From contig CAZATU010000002.1 in the NCBI GenBank assembly GCA_964488165.1, positions 137,334 to 201,333 on the forward strand: a stretch of 64,000 bases of DNA, given 5' to 3'. The DNA comes from an uncultured Candidatus Peribacteria bacterium (GTDB lineage Bacteria > Patescibacteriota > Gracilibacteria > Peribacterales > Peribacteraceae). Numbering within the stretch: the stretch's first letter is position 1; each line of letters opens with the position of its first letter. Positions 7,512 through 42,718 of the stretch are shown one piece after another. The notes beneath the pieces are model-generated. The model ran no database searches and was not told the origin of the DNA. It saw only the letters and a program-made list of their open reading frames with translations. The position numbers and the translations under genes are program-made.

Positions 7512-8576
7512 ATGCCTATTCAGAATACTGTTTTTATCTTTGGCGCTGGTGCCTCCTACGATGTCATAGGAAATCACACTTTGCCAAACTATGAATATGG
7601 CAATAAGTGGAAGCCGCCACTAACTAAGGATCTTTTTAAATCCACACAGGAATTTGACGATCTGGTAATTAATTACCCAGAACTATCCATCTTAACAGGC
7701 GACGTGCGGCGAGCAGTACAAGAGAAAAATATGGATTTTGAGAGCTACATGATGAATGTTAAGCAGCTCTCGGAGACTAACCCACTGCGCCATAGGCAGT
7801 TAGTACAAATGCGCTTCTATTTGCGTGAACTTCTCAATGAATGTTCCAACAAATACGTATATACGGCCAACCAATATGGCACGTTAATTGCAAGGCTCTT
7901 AGACATAAAGGGGGCTGCGAAAATCACTTTTGTCAGCTTCAACTATGACACGCTATTGGAGCAGGCAATGATGGCATGTCGCTTATTACCAGAACGCCAT
8001 TCACTCTCTATGGCTTCATACATCCATGCTGATATCCCATTGATCAAGCCACATGGTTCGGTCCAGTGGATATATAAAATCCCCCGTGACCGATACTCTC
8101 CTCAGTTAGGATGGAACAAATGGCTATTTGAAGTGCTAGCAAAAATTGAACCAGATGTATCAAAAATACCGATTGATATCGACGTATACTGGAAAAGTCA
8201 TGGTGAAATGGGAAAATTCGATGAGAACAATTTCTATTATCCAGCAATCGCGATACCGCTAAACAAAAAAACTGAATTCCTGCTGCCAAGAGAACATCTT
8301 GGAACACTTAAGACAGCACTGGTTGAAGCTCAAAATATTGTAACAATTGGATGGCGTGGTGCCGAAGACAAATTCTGCAACCTCATGAAGGAATGCCTCG
8401 CTGACCGAAGGCACAATCTTCATGTTGTGACCGAAAACCTTCAAAGCGCACAAGAAATTTGCGACCGCCTCCAAATAAATTATCTTGAGCAATCTAGCTC
8501 TCTACCTCGTGGTGGAGGCTTTTCTAAATTTTTAACAAACTTTGACAACCAGCAACTAGCTTCGATGCTCTCCTAA
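7512..8576 (+). CDS. stand-alone SIR2_2-type (SIR2-like) domain protein, putative NAD-consuming effector
   Basis: FIFGAGASYD (GAGxS), FVSFNYDTLLEQ (NYD), LIKPHGSVQW (catalytic His), IVTIGWRGAEDKF (GYS.xD-like). The ORF is conspicuously AT-rich compared with both flanks. Confidence 0.8.
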   Translation: MPIQNTVFIFGAGASYDVIGNHTLPNYEYGNKWKPPLTKDLFKSTQEFDDLVINYPELSILTGDVRRAVQEKNMDFESYMMNVKQLSETNPLRHRQLVQMRFYLRELLNECSNKYVYTANQYGTLIARLLDIKGAAKITFVSFNYDTLLEQAMMACRLLPERHSLSMASYIHADIPLIKPHGSVQWIYKIPRDRYSPQLGWNKWLFEVLAKIEPDVSKIPIDIDVYWKSHGEMGKFDENNFYYPAIAIPLNKKTEFLLPREHLGTLKTALVEAQNIVTIGWRGAEDKFCNLMKECLADRRHNLHVVTENLQSAQEICDRLQINYLEQSSSLPRGGGFSKFLTNFDNQQLASMLS

Positions 8577-9014: not shown

Positions 9015-9090
9015 TGGTGGAGCTGAGGAGATTCGAACTCCTGACCCTCTGCTTGCAAAGCAGATGCTCTACCAACTGAGCTACAGCCCC
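9015..9090 (-). tRNA. tRNA-Ala (anticodon TGC), CCA encoded
   Basis: Reverse complement GGGGCTGTAGCTCAGTTGGTAGAGCATCTGCTTTGCAAGCAGAGGGTCAGGAGTTCGAATCTCCTCAGCTCCACCA. Cloverleaf folds; G3:U70 identity pair; loop TTTGCAA. Confidence 0.95.
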
Positions 9091-9170
9091 ACAGGGTTAC
9101 AGTGATGATGGGAAAGACTCGGTCCGAGCACGGTATCTTCTGCTAGCGCGCCTCGCAAGCTGCGGCGCGG

Positions 9171-9191
9171 CCAACTGAGCTACAGCCCCAC
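9171..9191 (-). repeat. 21-nt exact duplicate of the tRNA-Ala 5' end (plus 2 nt upstream of it)
   Basis: ccaactgagctacagccccac occurs at 9072-9092 and again at 9171-9191. The second copy is not followed by a foldable tRNA body. Confidence 0.9.
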
Positions 9192-10429: not shown

Positions 10430-10504
10430 TGGAGGTGCCGGTGGGAATCGCACCCACGCATGGGGGTTTTGCAGACCCCTGCCTTACTACTTGGCTACGG
10501 CACC
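10430..10504 (-). tRNA. tRNA-Cys (anticodon GCA), CCA encoded
   Basis: Reverse complement GGTGCCGTAGCCAAGTAGTAAGGCAGGGGTCTGCAAAACCCCCATGCGTGGGTGCGATTCCCACCGGCACCTCCA. Loop CTGCAAA; discriminator U73, typical of Cys. Confidence 0.9.
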
Positions 10505-10596
10505 AGAGAGTGGGGGTAGCGTAGGGAATCTGTAGGTGTTTTTCCACCTGGATTTTAGCGACCCTGCGGGTTTCTTTGCTGCACACAGAAAACGCC

Positions 10597-11199
10597 TTTC
10601 CCACTTTTTGTAGAAAAAGAACGATGTTCCACCTTTGCCAACGCGGCAAAGGTGGAGCCAAAACGCTGGCCGTCAAAGCCCCCACTCCGCTTGCGGCACC
10701 ACCCCCGGCGTTGACGGCGGGCCACCCCAGGAGAGCATCGCCGCCTACTACTCTCCTAGGTATACACATCGGGAGGAGGTAGTGCGGGAGGGCCGCCGGG
10801 CTGCTCCATCGCAAAGAACTCCTCGAACATCCGAAGAGGGAGGAAGTTTTCCTGGAACCAGATCTGCTTCCTCAGAGCACCGTGGCGCGGCCCCGCCGCC
10901 ACGGAGGGTGTAGAGGGAGCCCCGCCGTGTCGTGGCGCAGCGAGTCGAGCTGCGCCAACGAGACGAGGAGACGGACGGGAAGCCCTCTACGAGGACTGCG
11001 TCCCAAGCCACTCAGGCTTCGCCATACGGCTCGCCTTCGAGAGCTTGGTCCTGGGAGCCTTGGACCGTCCGACGACGAGGCCCGGGGCGGTGCGGAGTGT
11101 GCACTTGGCGGCGGAGACTTTTCTTTCGCCGGTTTCTTTGCGTGGTTGGCAAAGAAACCGGCATCTCTCGTTACGGCAATTTTCTAAAAAAGTGGGAAA
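10597..11199 (+). repeat. structured non-coding repeat family, copy A (with inverted terminal A/T-rich motif)
   Basis: Shares a ~122-nt near-identical core (from 10627) with copies at 37618 and 41880 (rc), and the full length with copy B. Bounded by TTTCCCACTTTTTGTAGAAAA (10597-10617) and its inverse TTTTCTAAAAAAGTGGGAAA (11180-11199). Confidence 0.85.
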
Positions 11200-11254
11200 C
11201 CGTTTGATGTTTAAAACACCTGAAGCAGCAGAAAATGCGACGAAAGAGGAACCC

Positions 11255-37244: not shown

Positions 37245-37553
37245 ATGCCGCTACCCGGAGCACCAACTTCCTTGCCGCTTCCCCCACCCGGCCCCGTGCT
37301 GCCGGGGCAGCCGCCGATGCTGCCGACGGCACCGATGATGCTACAACAGCCGGACATGATCAGTCAGGCCGCGGCAACGCGCGTGCAGTACATGAACGCG
37401 ATGCTACAGCGACCTGGTGTACTGCAAACAATGGCGAGCAGCGGCATCAATATCCTGAAAACTATCGCGCCCGTCGCCGGAATGCTGCTGCTCACCTGGA
37501 TTGGCATCAAGACGATCCTTGGGCAGCCGCCGAAGTTTTTGAGTGGGAAGTAA
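37245..37553 (+). CDS. small Pro-rich protein with C-terminal TM helix
   Basis: MPLPGAPTSLPLPPPGPVLPGQPP... then ILKTIAPVAGMLLLTWIGI. TGCTAGAAT and a GAGGGG Shine-Dalgarno-like sequence just upstream. Confidence 0.5.
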   Translation: MPLPGAPTSLPLPPPGPVLPGQPPMLPTAPMMLQQPDMISQAAATRVQYMNAMLQRPGVLQTMASSGINILKTIAPVAGMLLLTWIGIKTILGQPPKFLSGK

Positions 37554-37578
37554 GCTTTGTGTGCCCTGGCGATATCCA

Positions 37579-38107
37579 AAATCTTCGACCTCTCGTGTCT
37601 CGCTTGAGCAACCGTCAGGGGGCTTATTTCCACCTTTTCCAACGCGGCAAAGGTGGAGCCAAAACGCTGGCCGTCAAAGCCCCCACTCCGCTTGCGGCAC
37701 CACCCCCGGCGTTGACGGCGCACCACCCCAAGAGAGCATCGCCGCCTACCGTTGTCCTAGGTATACAGATCACGAGAAAGTAGAGCGGGAGGGCCGCCGG
37801 GCTGCTCCATCGCGAAGGACTCCTCGAACGTCCGAAGCGGGAGGAGGTTTTCCTGGAACCAGATCTTCTTCCTCAGGGCATCGTGGCGCGGTTCCGCCGC
37901 CACGGGGGGTGTAAGGGGTAGCCCCGCCGTGTCGTGGCACAGCGAGTTGAGCTGCGGCAACGAGACGAGGAGGCAAGCGGGAAGCCTTGGACCGCTTGTC
38001 GACGAGGCCCGGGGCGGTGCGGAGTGTGCACTTGGCGGCGGAGACTTTTCTTTCGCCGGTTTCTTTGTGTGGTGACAAAGAAATCGGCACACTTCGTCTT
38101 TTCTAAA
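37579..38107 (+). repeat. structured non-coding repeat family, copy B
   Basis: Collinear with copy A over its full length except a ~75-nt deletion inside one helix. Shares an extra 5' segment (ctctcgtgtctcgcttgagcaaccgtcaggggg) with copy C. Confidence 0.85.
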
Positions 38108-38183
38108 AAAGTGAGAATTGCTTTCTCTTTGAATAGCAAAGAAACCAGCATTTCATCGCTTATGAAATACAGAGAAAAGAACC

Positions 38184-38229: not shown

Positions 38230-40455
38230 TTATCGACGGAAACCGCCTCCACGCGGAGGCCCACGATGTCCGCCGCCAAAGCCGCCGGGGCGCGGTCCGC
38301 GGGGGGCCGGCTCGGGCATGCCTTCGGGGCGCGGCGTCATCTGCTTGAGCGAGAGGCGCGTCTTGCCTTCGGCTGCGTCGTACTCAACACACATGGCATC
38401 GACTTCCTGGCCGAGCTGCACGACGTCCTCCACCTGCTCCGTGCGCTGCCACTGGAGCTCGCTGATGTGGATCATGCCGTCCTTGCCCTTGAGGAATTCG
38501 GCGATGGCGCCCACGCCCGGGATGATACGAACGACTTTGCAGTGGTACACCTTGCCCACTTCGGGCTTGGCGACGATGCCTTCGATCCATTCCTTGGCCT
38601 TCTTCATCGCCTCGCCATTGGCGGTGGTGATGAACACGAGGCCGCTGTCTTCGATATCGATCTCGGCGCCGGTTTCCTTGGTGATCTTCTGGATGGTTTC
38701 GCCACCCTTGCCGATAACCAAGCGAATGTCGTCGGGGTGCACCTGCACCGTTTCGATGCGGGGGGCGTACGGCGACATCGCGTCGCGCGGGCGGTCGATC
38801 ACCGCGAGCATCTTCTGGAGAATCTGCATGCGGCCCTGCTTCGAGCGCTCCAGCGCGTCGGCGAAGACAGAATCGGGCAAGCCCTTGATCTTGATATCCA
38901 TCTGAATAGCCGTGATACCGTTGCGGGTGCCACCGACCTTGAAGTCCATATCGCCGCCGAAGTCCTCCTCATCCTGCAGGTCGCTCAGCACGATGTATTT
39001 GTTCTTCTCTTCATCAGAGACGAGGCCGAGCGCGATGCCCGCGACGGGCTCGAGAATCGGCACACCGGCCGCCATGAGCGCGAGGGTGGAGCCGCAGGTC
39101 GCCGCCATGGACGAGCTGCCGTTGCTCTCGAGGATTTCGGTGACTGTGCGGATCGTGTAGGGGAATTTCTCCTCCTCAGGAAGCACGGGCTCCAGCGCGC
39201 GCTGCGCCAGGTTGCCGTGGCCGATCTCGCGGTTACCCACGAAGAGGCGGTTGCTGGTCTCCCCCACCGAGAACGGCGGGAAGTTGTAGTGATGCATGTA
39301 GCGAAGGTTGTGCTCGCCATCCATGCCTTCGACCAACTGCTTGTCGCCGGGCGAACCGAGCGTGCAGGTCGTAAGTCCCTGGGTTTCGCCGCGCTGGAAG
39401 AGTGCGGAACCGTGGACGCGGTTGGGCAACACGTCGAGCATGACAGAGATGTCGCGGATTTCATCGACCTTGCGACCGCTCATGCGCGTGCCTTCCTCGA
39501 GAATCAGGCGGCGCATTTCTCCTTTGACGACCTTATCGACGAGCTGGCCGCCCTTGGCGTAGAGCGCGGTTGCTTCATCTTCCTTGCCTGCCACAACGGG
39601 GAACTGCTCCTTGAGCTTCGCCTTGGCCTCATCCATCAATTTGGTGAAGATGGCGCGGCGCGTAAGCTTGGGCATCGGCGTCTTGATGGCCTTGGAAATC
39701 TCCGGAAGCGCCCATGCCTTGATGAAGGCGTACGCCTCGTCGTTGCTGAAGGCGGCGGGGGCTTCGAACTTGGGCTTACCGATTTCCTTCTGGATACCAG
39801 CGAAGAACGTGGCGACCTTCTGGGCCCACTTCTTGCCGAATTCGATGGCACGGAGCACTTGTTCCTCGGGCACCTGCTTGGCACCGGCTTCGATCATCAC
39901 GACGCGCTCGAGCGATGCCGTGACGTACATCGTGAGGTCGGACTTCGTGCGCGCTTCGCGGGACGGGTTCAAGACGAGCTCTCCGCCGATGAGACCCACG
40001 CACACCGTGCCCAGAGGGCCGTCGCAGGGGCAATCGGAGAGCGCCACCGAGAGATTAGCGGCGTTGGCGGCAACGACATCGTGCTCATGCTCGAAGTCGT
40101 AGCTTAAGACCGTGGCGAACACCTGGATGTCGTTGTGCAGGTGCTTGGGGAACATCGGGCGCAGGCCGCGGTCGATGACGCGAGCAAGCAGCACGTAGTC
40201 GTCGGATGGGCGACCCTCGCGCTTGCGGAAGCGGCTACCGGCGATCTTGCCTCCGGCGTAGTACTTTTCCTGATACACAACCTGCAGCGGCAGGAAGTCG
40301 ACCGTTTCTCGCGCTTTGGCGCTGACCGTGCAGTTGCCCATGCACACCGTGTCGCCGATCTGAGCGACGACCGACGCGTTGGCCTGGGTAGCCAGCTGAC
40401 CGGTTTTGACAATGAGGCGCTCGCTGCCGAGCTCCAAGGAATATTCCTTCAACAT
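38230..40455 (-). CDS. pnp: polyribonucleotide nucleotidyltransferase (PNPase) with RGG-rich tail
   Basis: Two RNase PH domains, KH (IGKGGETIQKITKETGAEIDI), S1 (GKVYHCKVVRIIPGVGAIAEF), C-terminal PRGPRPGGFGGGHRGPPRGGGFRR. Confidence 0.97.
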   Translation of the reverse strand: MLKEYSLELGSERLIVKTGQLATQANASVVAQIGDTVCMGNCTVSAKARETVDFLPLQVVYQEKYYAGGKIAGSRFRKREGRPSDDYVLLARVIDRGLRPMFPKHLHNDIQVFATVLSYDFEHEHDVVAANAANLSVALSDCPCDGPLGTVCVGLIGGELVLNPSREARTKSDLTMYVTASLERVVMIEAGAKQVPEEQVLRAIEFGKKWAQKVATFFAGIQKEIGKPKFEAPAAFSNDEAYAFIKAWALPEISKAIKTPMPKLTRRAIFTKLMDEAKAKLKEQFPVVAGKEDEATALYAKGGQLVDKVVKGEMRRLILEEGTRMSGRKVDEIRDISVMLDVLPNRVHGSALFQRGETQGLTTCTLGSPGDKQLVEGMDGEHNLRYMHHYNFPPFSVGETSNRLFVGNREIGHGNLAQRALEPVLPEEEKFPYTIRTVTEILESNGSSSMAATCGSTLALMAAGVPILEPVAGIALGLVSDEEKNKYIVLSDLQDEEDFGGDMDFKVGGTRNGITAIQMDIKIKGLPDSVFADALERSKQGRMQILQKMLAVIDRPRDAMSPYAPRIETVQVHPDDIRLVIGKGGETIQKITKETGAEIDIEDSGLVFITTANGEAMKKAKEWIEGIVAKPEVGKVYHCKVVRIIPGVGAIAEFLKGKDGMIHISELQWQRTEQVEDVVQLGQEVDAMCVEYDAAEGKTRLSLKQMTPRPEGMPEPAPRGPRPGGFGGGHRGPPRGGGFRR

Positions 40456-40617
40456 AAGAGAGGGGGTAAGAAAGCGTTTCGCTCACCCTCTCGGAGGATT
40501 CACACGTCAGAGCCGCAAAAGCGGCGCTGGCACGTAAATCCAAGAGGAGTGCGAGAAAAACGAGAAAGAACTGGACAGAGCCTACGCTCCACACGTACAA
40601 AATACCAGAACAGATTC

Positions 40618-40651
40618 TTGACAAAATACAATAAATTCGCTATCTTGTCAA
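40618..40651 (+). promoter_or_regulatory. promoter with overlapping inverted repeat
   Basis: TTGACA-17 nt-TATCTT. TTGACAA (40618-24) and TTGTCAA (40645-51) form an inverted repeat covering the -35 and -10 elements. Confidence 0.5.
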
Positions 40652-40877
40652 AGATACCTGTCTACGCTCTTTGCGCACCATCGGTGCGCGGTGACGGACG
40701 ACACTCAGAAACACGCACGGAACCGATCGTCGTACCGACACTGCGCTACCGCCCTTACCAGCGGTGTGTTCAAACACCGCGCCCTTCCCGTGGATTCTTC
40801 TGCGGTCGGGCGCAGAGGACACACCACGCCGTGAGGGCGGGCTACAACATCACTCATTCTGACGAAAGAGGTGCTCT

Positions 40878-41406: not shown

Positions 41407-41439
41407 TTGCTGATATTCTATTTTTGAGAAGCAAAGACG

Positions 41440-41925
41440 TTTCCCACTTTTTTAGAAAAAGTGGGAGGAAAAAGCGTCGCTGAAGAAGACCTTCTGCGGT
41501 GTTCTCCGTGTGCTCGCTACGCAGGCAGGCTCCTCGCTTTCTCTGGAAAGCTCGTCAAACAGGTGCCTGCGCTTCACGCTGCGCTCACGGACACCGCAAC
41601 GAACGTCTTCTAGGCGACACGAGGGAACGACGGTTTGAGGAGGCAGGCCGTGTTGCAGCAACACTTCCTCCCGCTTCGAATGTTCGAGGAGTTCTTCGTG
41701 ATGGAGCAGCCCGGCGGCTCTCCCGCTCTGTTTCCTTCCGATGTGTATACCTAGGAGAGCAGTAGGCGGCGATGCTCTCCTGGGGTGGCCCGCCGTCAAC
41801 GCCGGGGGTGGTGCCGCAAGCGGAGTGGGGGCTTTGACGGCCAGCGTTTTGGCTCCACCTTTGCCGCGCTGGAAAAGGTGGAAAAGCCTAAGCCCCCTGA
41901 CGGTTGCTCAAGCGAGACACGAGAG
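41440..41925 (-). repeat. structured non-coding repeat family, copy C (inverted orientation)
   Basis: The reverse complement shares the 5' segment and ~225 nt with copies A/B. The 3' half is different sequence but ends in the same TTTTCTAAAAAAGTGGGAAA motif, here part of the hairpin CCCACTTTTT-CT-AAAAAGTGGG. Confidence 0.85.
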
Positions 41926-42042
41926 ATCAGAGGGGGTTGACGTGACCACAAGGAAATCAGCATGTCTCGCCATGAAAAATCCATTTGCATACAATCACTC
42001 CAATGTACTATCGTACCAGTACATTAGTACATTCCCCCCACT

Positions 42043-42411
42043 ATGGAACACATCAACGCCGGTGAAACCGATATCGAAACTCCCCAGGAACCCACAGCAG
42101 TCGCAACCCAGCTCCACACCACCGCAACCCAAGCCCGAACACTGCTCAGCAGCACCCAAATCGACGCTGCCCAAGGCTACGGCGCCAGTTACCACCCGCT
42201 CACGGGCGACATGCTGGTGGGGCTGCGCTTCGATCCGGCGACTGGCCGCTTCCTCAAAACCACGACAGCCGTGGGATTCGGCGAAAGCAGCGTGAAAACG
42301 AAGCAGCTCGACCGCATCGGCGACGGCGCAAGCCACGCGCTCGACGAACTGCCCCTCGCGCACTGGCTTTTCGACCCTCGCACGGGCGCAGCGCTCAAGC
42401 GCGCTTCTTGA
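42043..42411 (+). CDS. hypothetical protein
   Basis: Plausible codon usage; no family recognised. Confidence 0.5.
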   Translation: MEHINAGETDIETPQEPTAVATQLHTTATQARTLLSSTQIDAAQGYGASYHPLTGDMLVGLRFDPATGRFLKTTTAVGFGESSVKTKQLDRIGDGASHALDELPLAHWLFDPRTGAALKRAS

Positions 42412-42718
42412 GCCGCTTCTTCAGGAACGCCGCGAATCCCCCGCTGCCGTGCTGCAGCATGCGCGAGCCCCGCGTGACGGTGGCGATGCTCACGCCGAGC
42501 CGCTTGGCGATCTCGCGCTGAGGCATGCCGGAAGCCAGCATCTGCACCAGCTGCCAGCGCTCGGTGAAATGGTCGAGTTCCTGCGGCGTCAGTAAATCCT
42601 CCAGGAGCTGCCGGGCCTCTTTGGGCGAGTCGACAGACGCGATGAGATCGTAGAGGGCAGTGCGCTGGCGGGGCGTTGAGGGCATACGCCCCATCGTAGC
42701 AGCCCGGCGCCGAAACAA
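42395..42718 (-). CDS. TrpR-like YerC/YecD family DNA-binding protein
   Basis: LLTPQELDHFTERWQLVQMLASGMPQREIAKRLGVSIATVTRGSRML. The true start may be an internal Met (42694 or 42685). Confidence 0.8.
   Translation of the reverse strand: MFRRRAATMGRMPSTPRQRTALYDLIASVDSPKEARQLLEDLLTPQELDHFTERWQLVQMLASGMPQREIAKRLGVSIATVTRGSRMLQHGSGGFAAFLKKRLKKRA

Follow-up and report, generated by a model that had tools for sequence, protein, structure and literature searches.

Non-coding, palindrome-rich mosaic repeats with long inverted ends, possibly of mobile origin, in a Candidatus Peribacteria genome

The window, that is, the whole 64-kb stretch of DNA that was analysed, is ordinary core genome that encodes SecF, trigger factor, RelA/SpoT, ValS, LexA, DinB, PNPase, S15, and UvrD. 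Its GC skew is smooth throughout. For the PNPase (38230-40455), the closest proteins apart from the window's own carry the names Candidatus Peregrinibacteria or Peribacteraceae and share 73-80% identity. Neither a transposase nor an integrase or reverse transcriptase occurs among the ~55 window genes, as an earlier note on this DNA had said of the surroundings, and there is no Y1_Tnp match and no recombinase gene among them either. Three non-coding intergenic copies of one repeat, referred to here as A, B, and C, lie in this window (Table 1). The repeat unit is 520-666 nt long across copies, has a GC content of 58-60%, and is built of nested hairpins and long inverted ends. The same note had located the three copies at these intergenic sites, and alignment and a repeat finder recovered all of them. 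The boundaries it gave were too narrow, however, because homology continues ~33 nt past the terminal 19-mer (see below) at several ends, so that A spans 10565-11230 and B reaches 38150.

Table 1. Coordinates of the repeat copies and their component parts in the window.
Feature	Position	Strand	Description
Copy A	10565..11230	+	666 nt; sole copy with both end modules
Left end module of A	10565..10617	+	tip TGCGGG; M2 GCAAAGAAACCCGC inverted at 10566-10579; M1 AAAAAGTGGGAA inverted at 10598-10609
Hairpin 1	A 10629..10655, B 37630-37656, C 41855-41881	+ (A)	CCACCTTTGCC-AACGC-GGCAAAGGTGG; perfect in A, one mismatch each in B and C
Left arm (core)	10640..10719	+	identical in A, B, and C
Core helix	10669-76 / 10711-18	+	GCCGTCAA/TTGACGGC; G(CUUG)C tetraloop
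Variable centre	10726..11059	+	9-12% divergence among A, B, and D; holds H3 and the A-only insertion
Helix H3	A 10970-78 with 11065-73; B 37972-37980 with 37992-38000		in B, GGCAAGCGG with CCGCTTGTC
Right arm	11075..11135	+	invariant
Hairpin 2	A 11128..11162, B 38055-38088	+ (A)	14 bp; two inverted M2 boxes
Right end module of A	11180..11230	+	19-mer TTTTCTAAAAAAGTGGGAA at 11180-11198, then degenerate outer part ending ...AGCAGCA
Copy B	37587..38150	+	leader, core, centre, right arm, hairpin 2; M1 38099-38117, M2 tip 38136-38150
Leader of B	37587-37626	+	40 nt; occupies the place of the left end module
Copy C	41408..41928	-	leader 41889-41928, core 41627-41883, tip 41408
3' half of C	~41468-41626	-	unlike A/B, self-complementary; comes after the core
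M1 palindrome of C	41441-41467	-	CCCACTTTTTCTAAAAAAGTGGG

In both the alignment and the repeat finder output, the three copies share 87-91% identity over the core (10627-10883). Its first 122 nt differ at 2-4 positions per copy pair, just as had been described for the 5' core. When aligned, copies A and B are alike over their full length except for a 75-nt insertion in A (at ~10981-11059, with the edges GGGAAGCC/GGGAGCC). The copies, together with a fourth one (D) from another metagenome, are mosaics: B and C have another left end, a common 40-nt leader being found where A has its left end module, C has another 3' half, and D carries an internal deletion. B and C are mutually inverted and flank a 3.3-kb segment with pnp and a gene for 156 amino acids, and A and C, likewise inverted, flank 30 kb. 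Four copies are known in total, three of them within 31 kb. Their flanks are unrelated at all four loci, and at each of these the right tip lies 8-80 nt beyond the stop codon of a convergent gene. An adjoining tRNA gene, which had been noted as a feature of the copies, is found at A (tRNA-Cys, 10430-10504) but not at B or C. This tRNA gene has the left end module of A immediately upstream, where the tRNA promoter must be. In independent Logan assemblies of several samples, contigs enter the element ends from unique flanks and then stop (at copy B, the breaks fall at 37612-37615 and at 38061). Thus, the repeats are not an assembly artefact. The Logan contigs also include strain variants; the element ends are present in all of them, and no empty site, that is, no element-free locus, was seen among these variants.

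The two ends of the element are inverted duplicates of each other. nhmmer detects homology between the left ~170 nt (A 10565-10731) and the reverse-complemented right ~170 nt, at E-values of 5e-7 for B and 1e-4 for A itself. This inverted duplication is imperfect, with one near-perfect stretch of 28 nt that includes the box M1, and both inverted ends are complete in copy A alone. From the outside to the inside, each end consists of a two-box end module, a perfect hairpin composed of M2-like half-sites, and an arm. The boxes of the end module are M1 (AAAAAGTGGGAA) and, 17-18 nt farther out, M2 (GCAAAGAAACCNGC), which ends in ...CA. M1 occurs five times where 0.1 occurrences are expected, and M2 nine times where 0.74 are expected, six of the nine being within element ends. 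The tip follows M1 at a fixed distance of 32-33 nt in each of the five end modules, and the tips read TG.../...CA. In addition, the 19-mer TTTTCTAAAAAAGTGRGAA terminates all three copies in the window (three matches, none expected), which bears out the common end motif reported before. The core of this 19-mer is also found just upstream of itself in C and, inverted, at the left end of A (10598-10609). The inverted motif had been taken for a terminal inverted repeat of copy A. The motif itself stands, but the real repeat is the imperfect ~170-nt inverted duplication, which reaches well beyond the 19-mer. The repeat finder paired the left end module of A with the right end of B (38106-38150) at 78% complementarity. 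C and D have a complete M1 palindrome (TTCCCAC-N13-GTGGGAA) at their right ends and B a partial one, and in A the two halves are 580 nt apart. Conservation is lower in the outermost 33 nt (57-64% identity) than in the internal arms (~100%). Target-site duplications, to which the earlier note had drawn attention, are absent around A (GACCC| ... |GAAAA) and D (...GACAAG / CCTCTC...).

Inside the end modules, hairpins and arms form a regular pattern. Hairpin 1, with its perfect stem in A and the single stem mismatch in B and C, and the second helix of the core were found as previously described. Hairpin 1 is homologous to hairpin 2: the two have a common centre (CTTTGCCAAC...GCAAAG), and their outer stems differ while still being complementary. 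The centre between the ends measures 260-330 nt and is 88-91% identical between copies. A, B, and D agree at each of 68 aligned columns of the right arm, which begin right after H3 (~11074) and extend into the 5' arm of hairpin 2. At a divergence of 10%, 68 unchanged positions have a chance of ~8e-4 per pair. The two arms can pair with each other in an interrupted duplex of 42 bp (10666-10725 with 11060-11115). The two blocks without variation between copies are the very arms that can pair in this way. For this duplex, energies of -64 and -67 kcal/mol were obtained on the two strands, compared with a window-wide background of -40.5 +/- 9.1. The value of -64 kcal/mol ranks 22nd among 3876 windows, and at least eight of the better windows are the copies' own reverse strands. 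The pairing of H3 is kept through three adjacent double changes, with B and D having a loop of 10-11 nt and A one of 86 nt. Hairpin 2 of copy B has a C-G to T-A swap at the closing pair and one G-T pair. These exchanges in H3 and hairpin 2, which had been cited as covariation, are real, but the positions reported for B were about 10 too low. An 8-bp hairpin at 10933-10957 behaves differently, its arms GGCGCAGC/GCTGCGCC in A being replaced by GGCACAGC/GCTGCGGC in B, where the pairing is broken twice.

Copy D was found through a HMMER search with a spurious open reading frame of the window (37543-37914), which matched a 180-aa open reading frame, P0122. A HMMER follow-up for further homologs of P0122 returned P0122 alone. 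The copy is located on contig L026 of another metagenome with unrelated flanks, where its neighbours are a redoxin gene on one side and a convergent metallophosphoesterase-like gene on the other. D has neither hairpin 1 nor a left arm but still carries the right arm and hairpin 2, together with the 3' part of the centre, the M1 palindrome, and the M2 tip. At its left junction, D has an inverted copy of the right-end sequence. By its sequence, copy D is a truncated deletion derivative. As D keeps the right arm unchanged without having a left arm, a long-range RNA helix cannot be the sole constraint on this arm.

In relatives, the genes around copies B and C are arranged in the order UvrD-rpsO-[variable]-pnp-[variable]-valS-lexA-dinB. 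The two variable spots that flank pnp are filled by B and C here and by other insertions in the relatives. One relative has at these spots a RAYT-type Y1 transposase with REP-like palindromes, which are unrelated in sequence to the repeat described here. In one relative, a hairpin is repeated on both sides of pnp. The repeat itself is absent from the pnp loci of the relatives, whether searched with blastn or with a covariance model of the core. None of the small genes next to the copies has an ortholog in the relatives, and hence the exact empty site is not reconstructable.

Several observations address whether the repeat encodes a protein. No reading frame shows an excess of synonymous over non-synonymous differences among the copies, the GC3 of open reading frames inside the copies is 0.64-0.70 compared with 0.75-0.90 in real genes of this genome, and a concatenated six-frame query of copy A found no protein relatives among 5.8 billion sequences. 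The substitution pattern, GC3, and the six-frame search thus confirm the earlier observation that no frame is conserved, and on these measures the repeat family is non-coding. Searches at the nucleotide level retrieved no known family. At Rfam gathering thresholds, the whole window contains two tRNAs only, and for copies A and B, E-values up to 10 merely yielded chance-level microRNA and sRNA matches far below threshold, in agreement with the previous failure to recognise a known RNA family. Group I and II introns, T-boxes, RNase P, and 6S RNA were rejected on the ground that none reaches the Rfam gathering threshold. Y RNA and integron attC readings were rejected as well, and so was a retron or diversity-generating retroelement, because there is no reverse transcriptase and the differences are not confined to adenine positions. 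An exact-pattern scan of genome contigs with a 22-mer of the core gave chance matches only (a Bacillus spore-protein gene), a scan of metagenome contigs with a 20-mer gave three chance or uncertain loci, and pattern scans of viral contigs gave nothing or AT-rich chance matches. Plasmids and phages contained no blastn match. The covariance model of the 124-nt core, when run on the window and 13 loci, detected the three copies only.

The RNA fold of copy A has a z-score of -9.0 on the plus strand and -7.5 on the minus strand. Compared with column-shuffled alignments, the consensus folding z-score is -4.1 for A and B and -4.8 for A, B, and D. The alignments contain 4-5 compensatory pairs versus 1-1.6 in the column shuffles, and 0-2 of 100-150 shuffles reach the observed count. 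These pairs go back to two events, the triple change in H3 and the closing pair of hairpin 2, with D adding none, and only four sequences are available. The three-copy core contains three compensatory pairs where 2.5 are expected and thus no excess. Folding z-scores and compensatory counts are about equal on both strands, which fits DNA palindromes, and a strand could be assigned neither from G-U pairs nor from energies. No sigma-70-like promoter was found on the copies' own strand before any of them, although promoters of this phylum may differ, and a canonical terminator was not found after any copy. The single promoter-like match (41967-41995, plus strand) points away from copy C. Taken together, the pattern shows what appears to be maintenance of the palindromes, and the evidence does not distinguish whether they would act as RNA, as single-stranded DNA, or as protein-binding sites. 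The earlier conclusion that constraint on pairing points to a functional RNA is therefore weak, given the two events, the core without excess, the strand symmetry, the substitutions that break some hairpins, and the lack of promoter and terminator.

We interpret the copies, with a probability of about one half, as a lineage-specific family of non-coding, palindrome-rich mosaic repeats that represents a MITE/BIME-like or foldback-like non-autonomous element or the decayed remains of one. The long inverted ends with their boxes, the mosaics, the deletion derivative, and the placement past gene ends would fit a mobile element better than an RNA. The four loci with unrelated flanks, the absence from relatives with the same gene order, the invariant arms around a divergent centre, and the strand-symmetric folding also speak for this reading. 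The earlier note had left the choice between a non-coding RNA and a structured non-autonomous mobile element. Its description as non-coding, repeated, self-complementary, and not represented in Rfam holds, and it is the newly recognised anatomy that fits the mobile element better. The M1 and M2 boxes and the invariant arms would be candidate cis sites for a transposase or recombinase encoded elsewhere, and this protein may have moved or copied the element into regions behind gene ends. Either gene conversion or selection for the activity of such a protein could keep the ends constant while the centres drift. One may further speculate that the inserted hairpins act on neighbouring transcripts as 3'-end barriers, as REP/BIME may do. 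However, some observations argue against a mobile element. A and D have no target-site duplication, the window contains no partner transposase, and the copies are few. Target-site duplications can fade with age (PMC10969869). The tips are less conserved than the inner arms, which is the reverse of a usual transposase end, two end modules exist in A alone, and the strain variants offered no empty site. Size, GC content, and the ~170-nt inverted ends are outside the usual range of prokaryotic MITEs, which are <500 bp long and AT-rich and have terminal inverted repeats of 4-30 bp (PMC10969869). Finally, the two compensatory hairpin events would fit an RNA too. The mobile repeat and the structured RNA are not mutually exclusive, however, because the transcripts of MITEs are frequently folded and have in some cases become small RNAs (PMC10969869).

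As the main alternative, the copies could be paralogous genes for a structured non-coding RNA of ~0.5 kb, whose 5' core and 3' arm would close the molecule by the interrupted 42-bp helix. Hairpins 1 and 2 and H3 with its variable-length cap would then be structural domains, and transcription would proceed in the orientation assumed in the earlier note. The exact match between pairable arms and invariant blocks and the high rank of their duplex would be expected of such a molecule, and the preserved pairing in H3 and at the closing pair of hairpin 2, the compensatory counts, and the consensus z-scores point in the same direction. Moreover, the core contains a G(CUUG)C tetraloop, and several one-sided changes yield G-U pairs on the assumed strand. 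We nevertheless regard an RNA gene family as rather unlikely. Beyond the small number of compensatory events and the core without excess covariation, many substitutions break predicted pairs, among them those in the 8-bp hairpin of B, and every statistic is alike on the opposite strand. The copies have no sigma-70-like promoter before them on their own strand and no canonical terminator at their end. The 5' ends differ between A and B/C. C is without the 3' arm and D without the 5' arm, yet the remaining arm is intact in each, and no homolog was found in the relatives' loci searched or in Rfam. A more specific variant, a gene or mobile cassette for a new large RNA of ~0.5 kb that is restricted to a Peribacteria lineage and has the closing helix and a variable H3 expansion, appears doubtful. 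Such a large-RNA cassette could work with a protein encoded elsewhere, in the manner of the guide or bridge RNAs known from IS605 and IS110 elements.

It is improbable that the copies are plain local segmental duplications, for example of the region upstream of tRNA-Cys, without function and partly homogenised by gene conversion. The location of three of the four known copies within 31 kb would be in line with this scenario, blocks of zero divergence beside blocks of 10% resemble the patchy pattern of gene conversion, and the left end module of A occupies the presumed site of the tRNA-Cys promoter. However, D is placed in unrelated flanks in another sample, the right tips keep a fixed distance from M1 and are sharply delimited from each of five different flanks, and both the inverted duplication within the element and its arrays of boxes speak for an organised element. 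Likewise improbable, in our view, are DNA sites that act in cis for a site-specific recombinase or a DNA-binding regulator, with the M1 palindrome as the core site, where the inverted pairs B/C or A/C could allow inversion or excision. The state of the M1 palindrome (intact at the right ends of C and D, partial at B) and its widely separated halves in A, which are attL/attR-like, could be read in this way, as could the inversion of B and C around pnp and the hairpin repeated on both sides of pnp in a relative. For Peribacter riflensis genomes, one direct repeat pair around ~3 kb has been reported (PMC4736985), which would also be compatible with recombinase sites. Against them, there is no recombinase gene in the window and the GC skew is smooth, 500 nt of common sequence and the invariant arms would be left unexplained, and pnp is a core gene in a conserved gene order. 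A decayed protein-coding gene such as a transposase pseudogene of an insertion sequence, to which a GC content near the genome average and long open stretches in several frames might be ascribed, was rejected as hardly credible, because no frame has a synonymous excess, there is no GC3 periodicity, and the six-frame search gave no protein relative, the sole notable HMMER match being the spurious open reading frame over D.

Repeats and mobile DNA have been little described in bacteria of the Candidate Phyla Radiation, whose genomes are small (~1.2 Mb) and streamlined. A selfish or regulatory repeat of 0.5 kb that is kept at several sites in such a genome would thus be worth recording. This applies in particular to copies B and C, because the surroundings of pnp, which they flank, are an insertion hot spot in this clade. 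The repeat would add to the picture of genome plasticity and would explain assembly breaks. If the invariant arms did act as RNA, the family would constitute a new class of large RNAs in an uncultivated phylum.

Prokaryotic MITEs include the Correia/NEMIS elements of Neisseria and QMITE2 of Coxiella. The repeat resembles MITEs in being non-coding, intergenic, and multi-copy, in having terminal inverted repeats and no transposase of its own, in transcripts or single strands that fold into very stable stem-loops, and in its deletion and mosaic derivatives. It differs in its length of 520-666 nt (MITEs are typically <500), in imperfect ends of ~170 nt instead of 4-30 bp, in a GC content of 58-60% instead of AT-richness, in tips that are less conserved than the inner arms, and in that neither target-site duplications nor a parent insertion sequence are known for it. 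Mosaic palindromic repeats are represented by BIME/REP of enterobacteria and by BOX (boxA-B-C), RUP, and SPRITE of pneumococcus. Like these, the repeat consists of modular units in varying order that cluster and insert into one another, and its hairpins are placed just downstream of genes, often convergent ones, where they may act on mRNA 3' ends. However, it is several times larger than REP (20-40 nt) and BIME or BOX (~100-300 nt) and has long invariant arms, and the window contains no RAYT gene as a counterpart of the REP/BIME-RAYT system, although one relative has such a gene at the same spot. Subterminal hairpins, the absence of target-site duplications, and a structured, conserved right end are features in common with the IS200/IS605-derived non-autonomous PATEs and their TnpB guide-RNA (omega RNA) ends. 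PATEs have no terminal inverted repeats, though, and their hairpins are read on one strand, whereas the hairpins here have inverted flanks. Unlike at IS200/IS605 elements, no tnpA or tnpB gene or remnant is present, and the repeat has no match in the Rfam library, which we take to include the IS605-orfB and HEARO motifs. With ROOL, GOLLD, and OLE, the repeat has in common a size of ~0.5 kb, one copy adjoining a tRNA, the lack of coding capacity, and strong folding. In contrast to these RNAs, it has no model match at E-values up to 10, no broad phylogenetic distribution, and no strand-specific covariation, and its copies are rearranged and truncated. The family is real, well delimited, and absent from the databases searched; its kind is familiar, and its size and architecture are unusual.

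Three copies of the palindrome-rich non-coding repeat family lie in the window. Helix H3 of copy A contains within its loop a 75-nt segment that the other copies lack. Two direct repeats, GGGAAGCC and GGGAGCC, border this segment, and fold prediction indicates that it forms a stem-loop of its own. It represents either a nested insertion in copy A or a slippage deletion in the lineage of copy B and the truncated fourth member, copy D. Two low-GC metagenome contigs, L005 and L006, contain TTCCACCTTTGGCAAAGGTGGAGCCAAAAC, which comprises the stem of hairpin 1 and the 9-nt 3' flank of this hairpin and is palindromic there too. With a covariance model of the element core, these loci reached an E-value of only 0.09, and the occurrence of TTCCACCTTTGGCAAAGGTGGAGCCAAAAC is either coincidental or due to a protein or RNA motif that is shared.

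Close to tRNA-Ala, a stretch of 35 nt located 67 nt upstream of the tRNA gene is 83% identical to its 5' half. This partial copy falls within the likely leader of tRNA-Ala; an insertion or a duplication may have left it there as a scar. The 354-aa ORF adjoining tRNA-Ala has a GC3 of 0.43, compared with 0.75-0.90 for other genes, and was probably acquired horizontally. Its match to SIR2_2 is weak and under the Pfam cut-off; a defence-related role is possible.

Coordinates of features in the window and in contigs from other sources
Feature	Source	Position	Strand	Location
354-aa ORF	window	7512-8576	+	adjoining tRNA-Ala
tRNA-Ala	window	9015-9090	-	
Partial tRNA-Ala copy	window	9157-9191		
75-nt segment of copy A	window	~10981-11059		
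422-nt spacer	window	40456-40877		
32-nt palindrome	window	42002-42033		between copy C and ORF 42043-42411
TrpR-like repressor gene	window	42395-42718	-	between rpsO and pnp
TTCCACCTTTGGCAAAGGTGGAGCCAAAAC	L005	68-105		
TTCCACCTTTGGCAAAGGTGGAGCCAAAAC	L006	34-71		
RAYT-like Y1 transposase gene and its palindromes	L013	9060-9530 and 9128-9736		
~55-nt hairpin, two copies	L013	9901-9945 and 12317-12361		

The PNPase gene, pnp, and a divergently oriented gene for a 156-aa product are separated by a spacer that had no match in Rfam. This spacer is a candidate for a structured, autoregulatory leader of pnp. Next to copy C, the palindrome AATGTACTA-N14-TAGTACATT adjoins the TrpR-like repressor gene and resembles an operator. 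In L013, the pnp locus of a Peribacteria relative, a RAYT-like Y1 transposase gene (Pfam Y1_Tnp, E-value 5.6e-8) is situated between rpsO and pnp. The 30-nt palindrome CGTAGGGGTTCCGCATGCGGAACCCCTACG occurs upstream of this gene and a second time within it. The same locus contains two 98% identical copies of a hairpin with a 15-bp stem, one directly before the start of pnp and the other after its end. In the window, copies B and C lie on the two sides of pnp, and for Peribacter riflensis 'one direct repeat around ~3 kb' has been reported (PMC4736985). Taken together, the hairpin pair of the relative, copies B and C, and the P. riflensis repeat suggest that pnp has repeatedly been bracketed by repeats in the Peribacteria clade.
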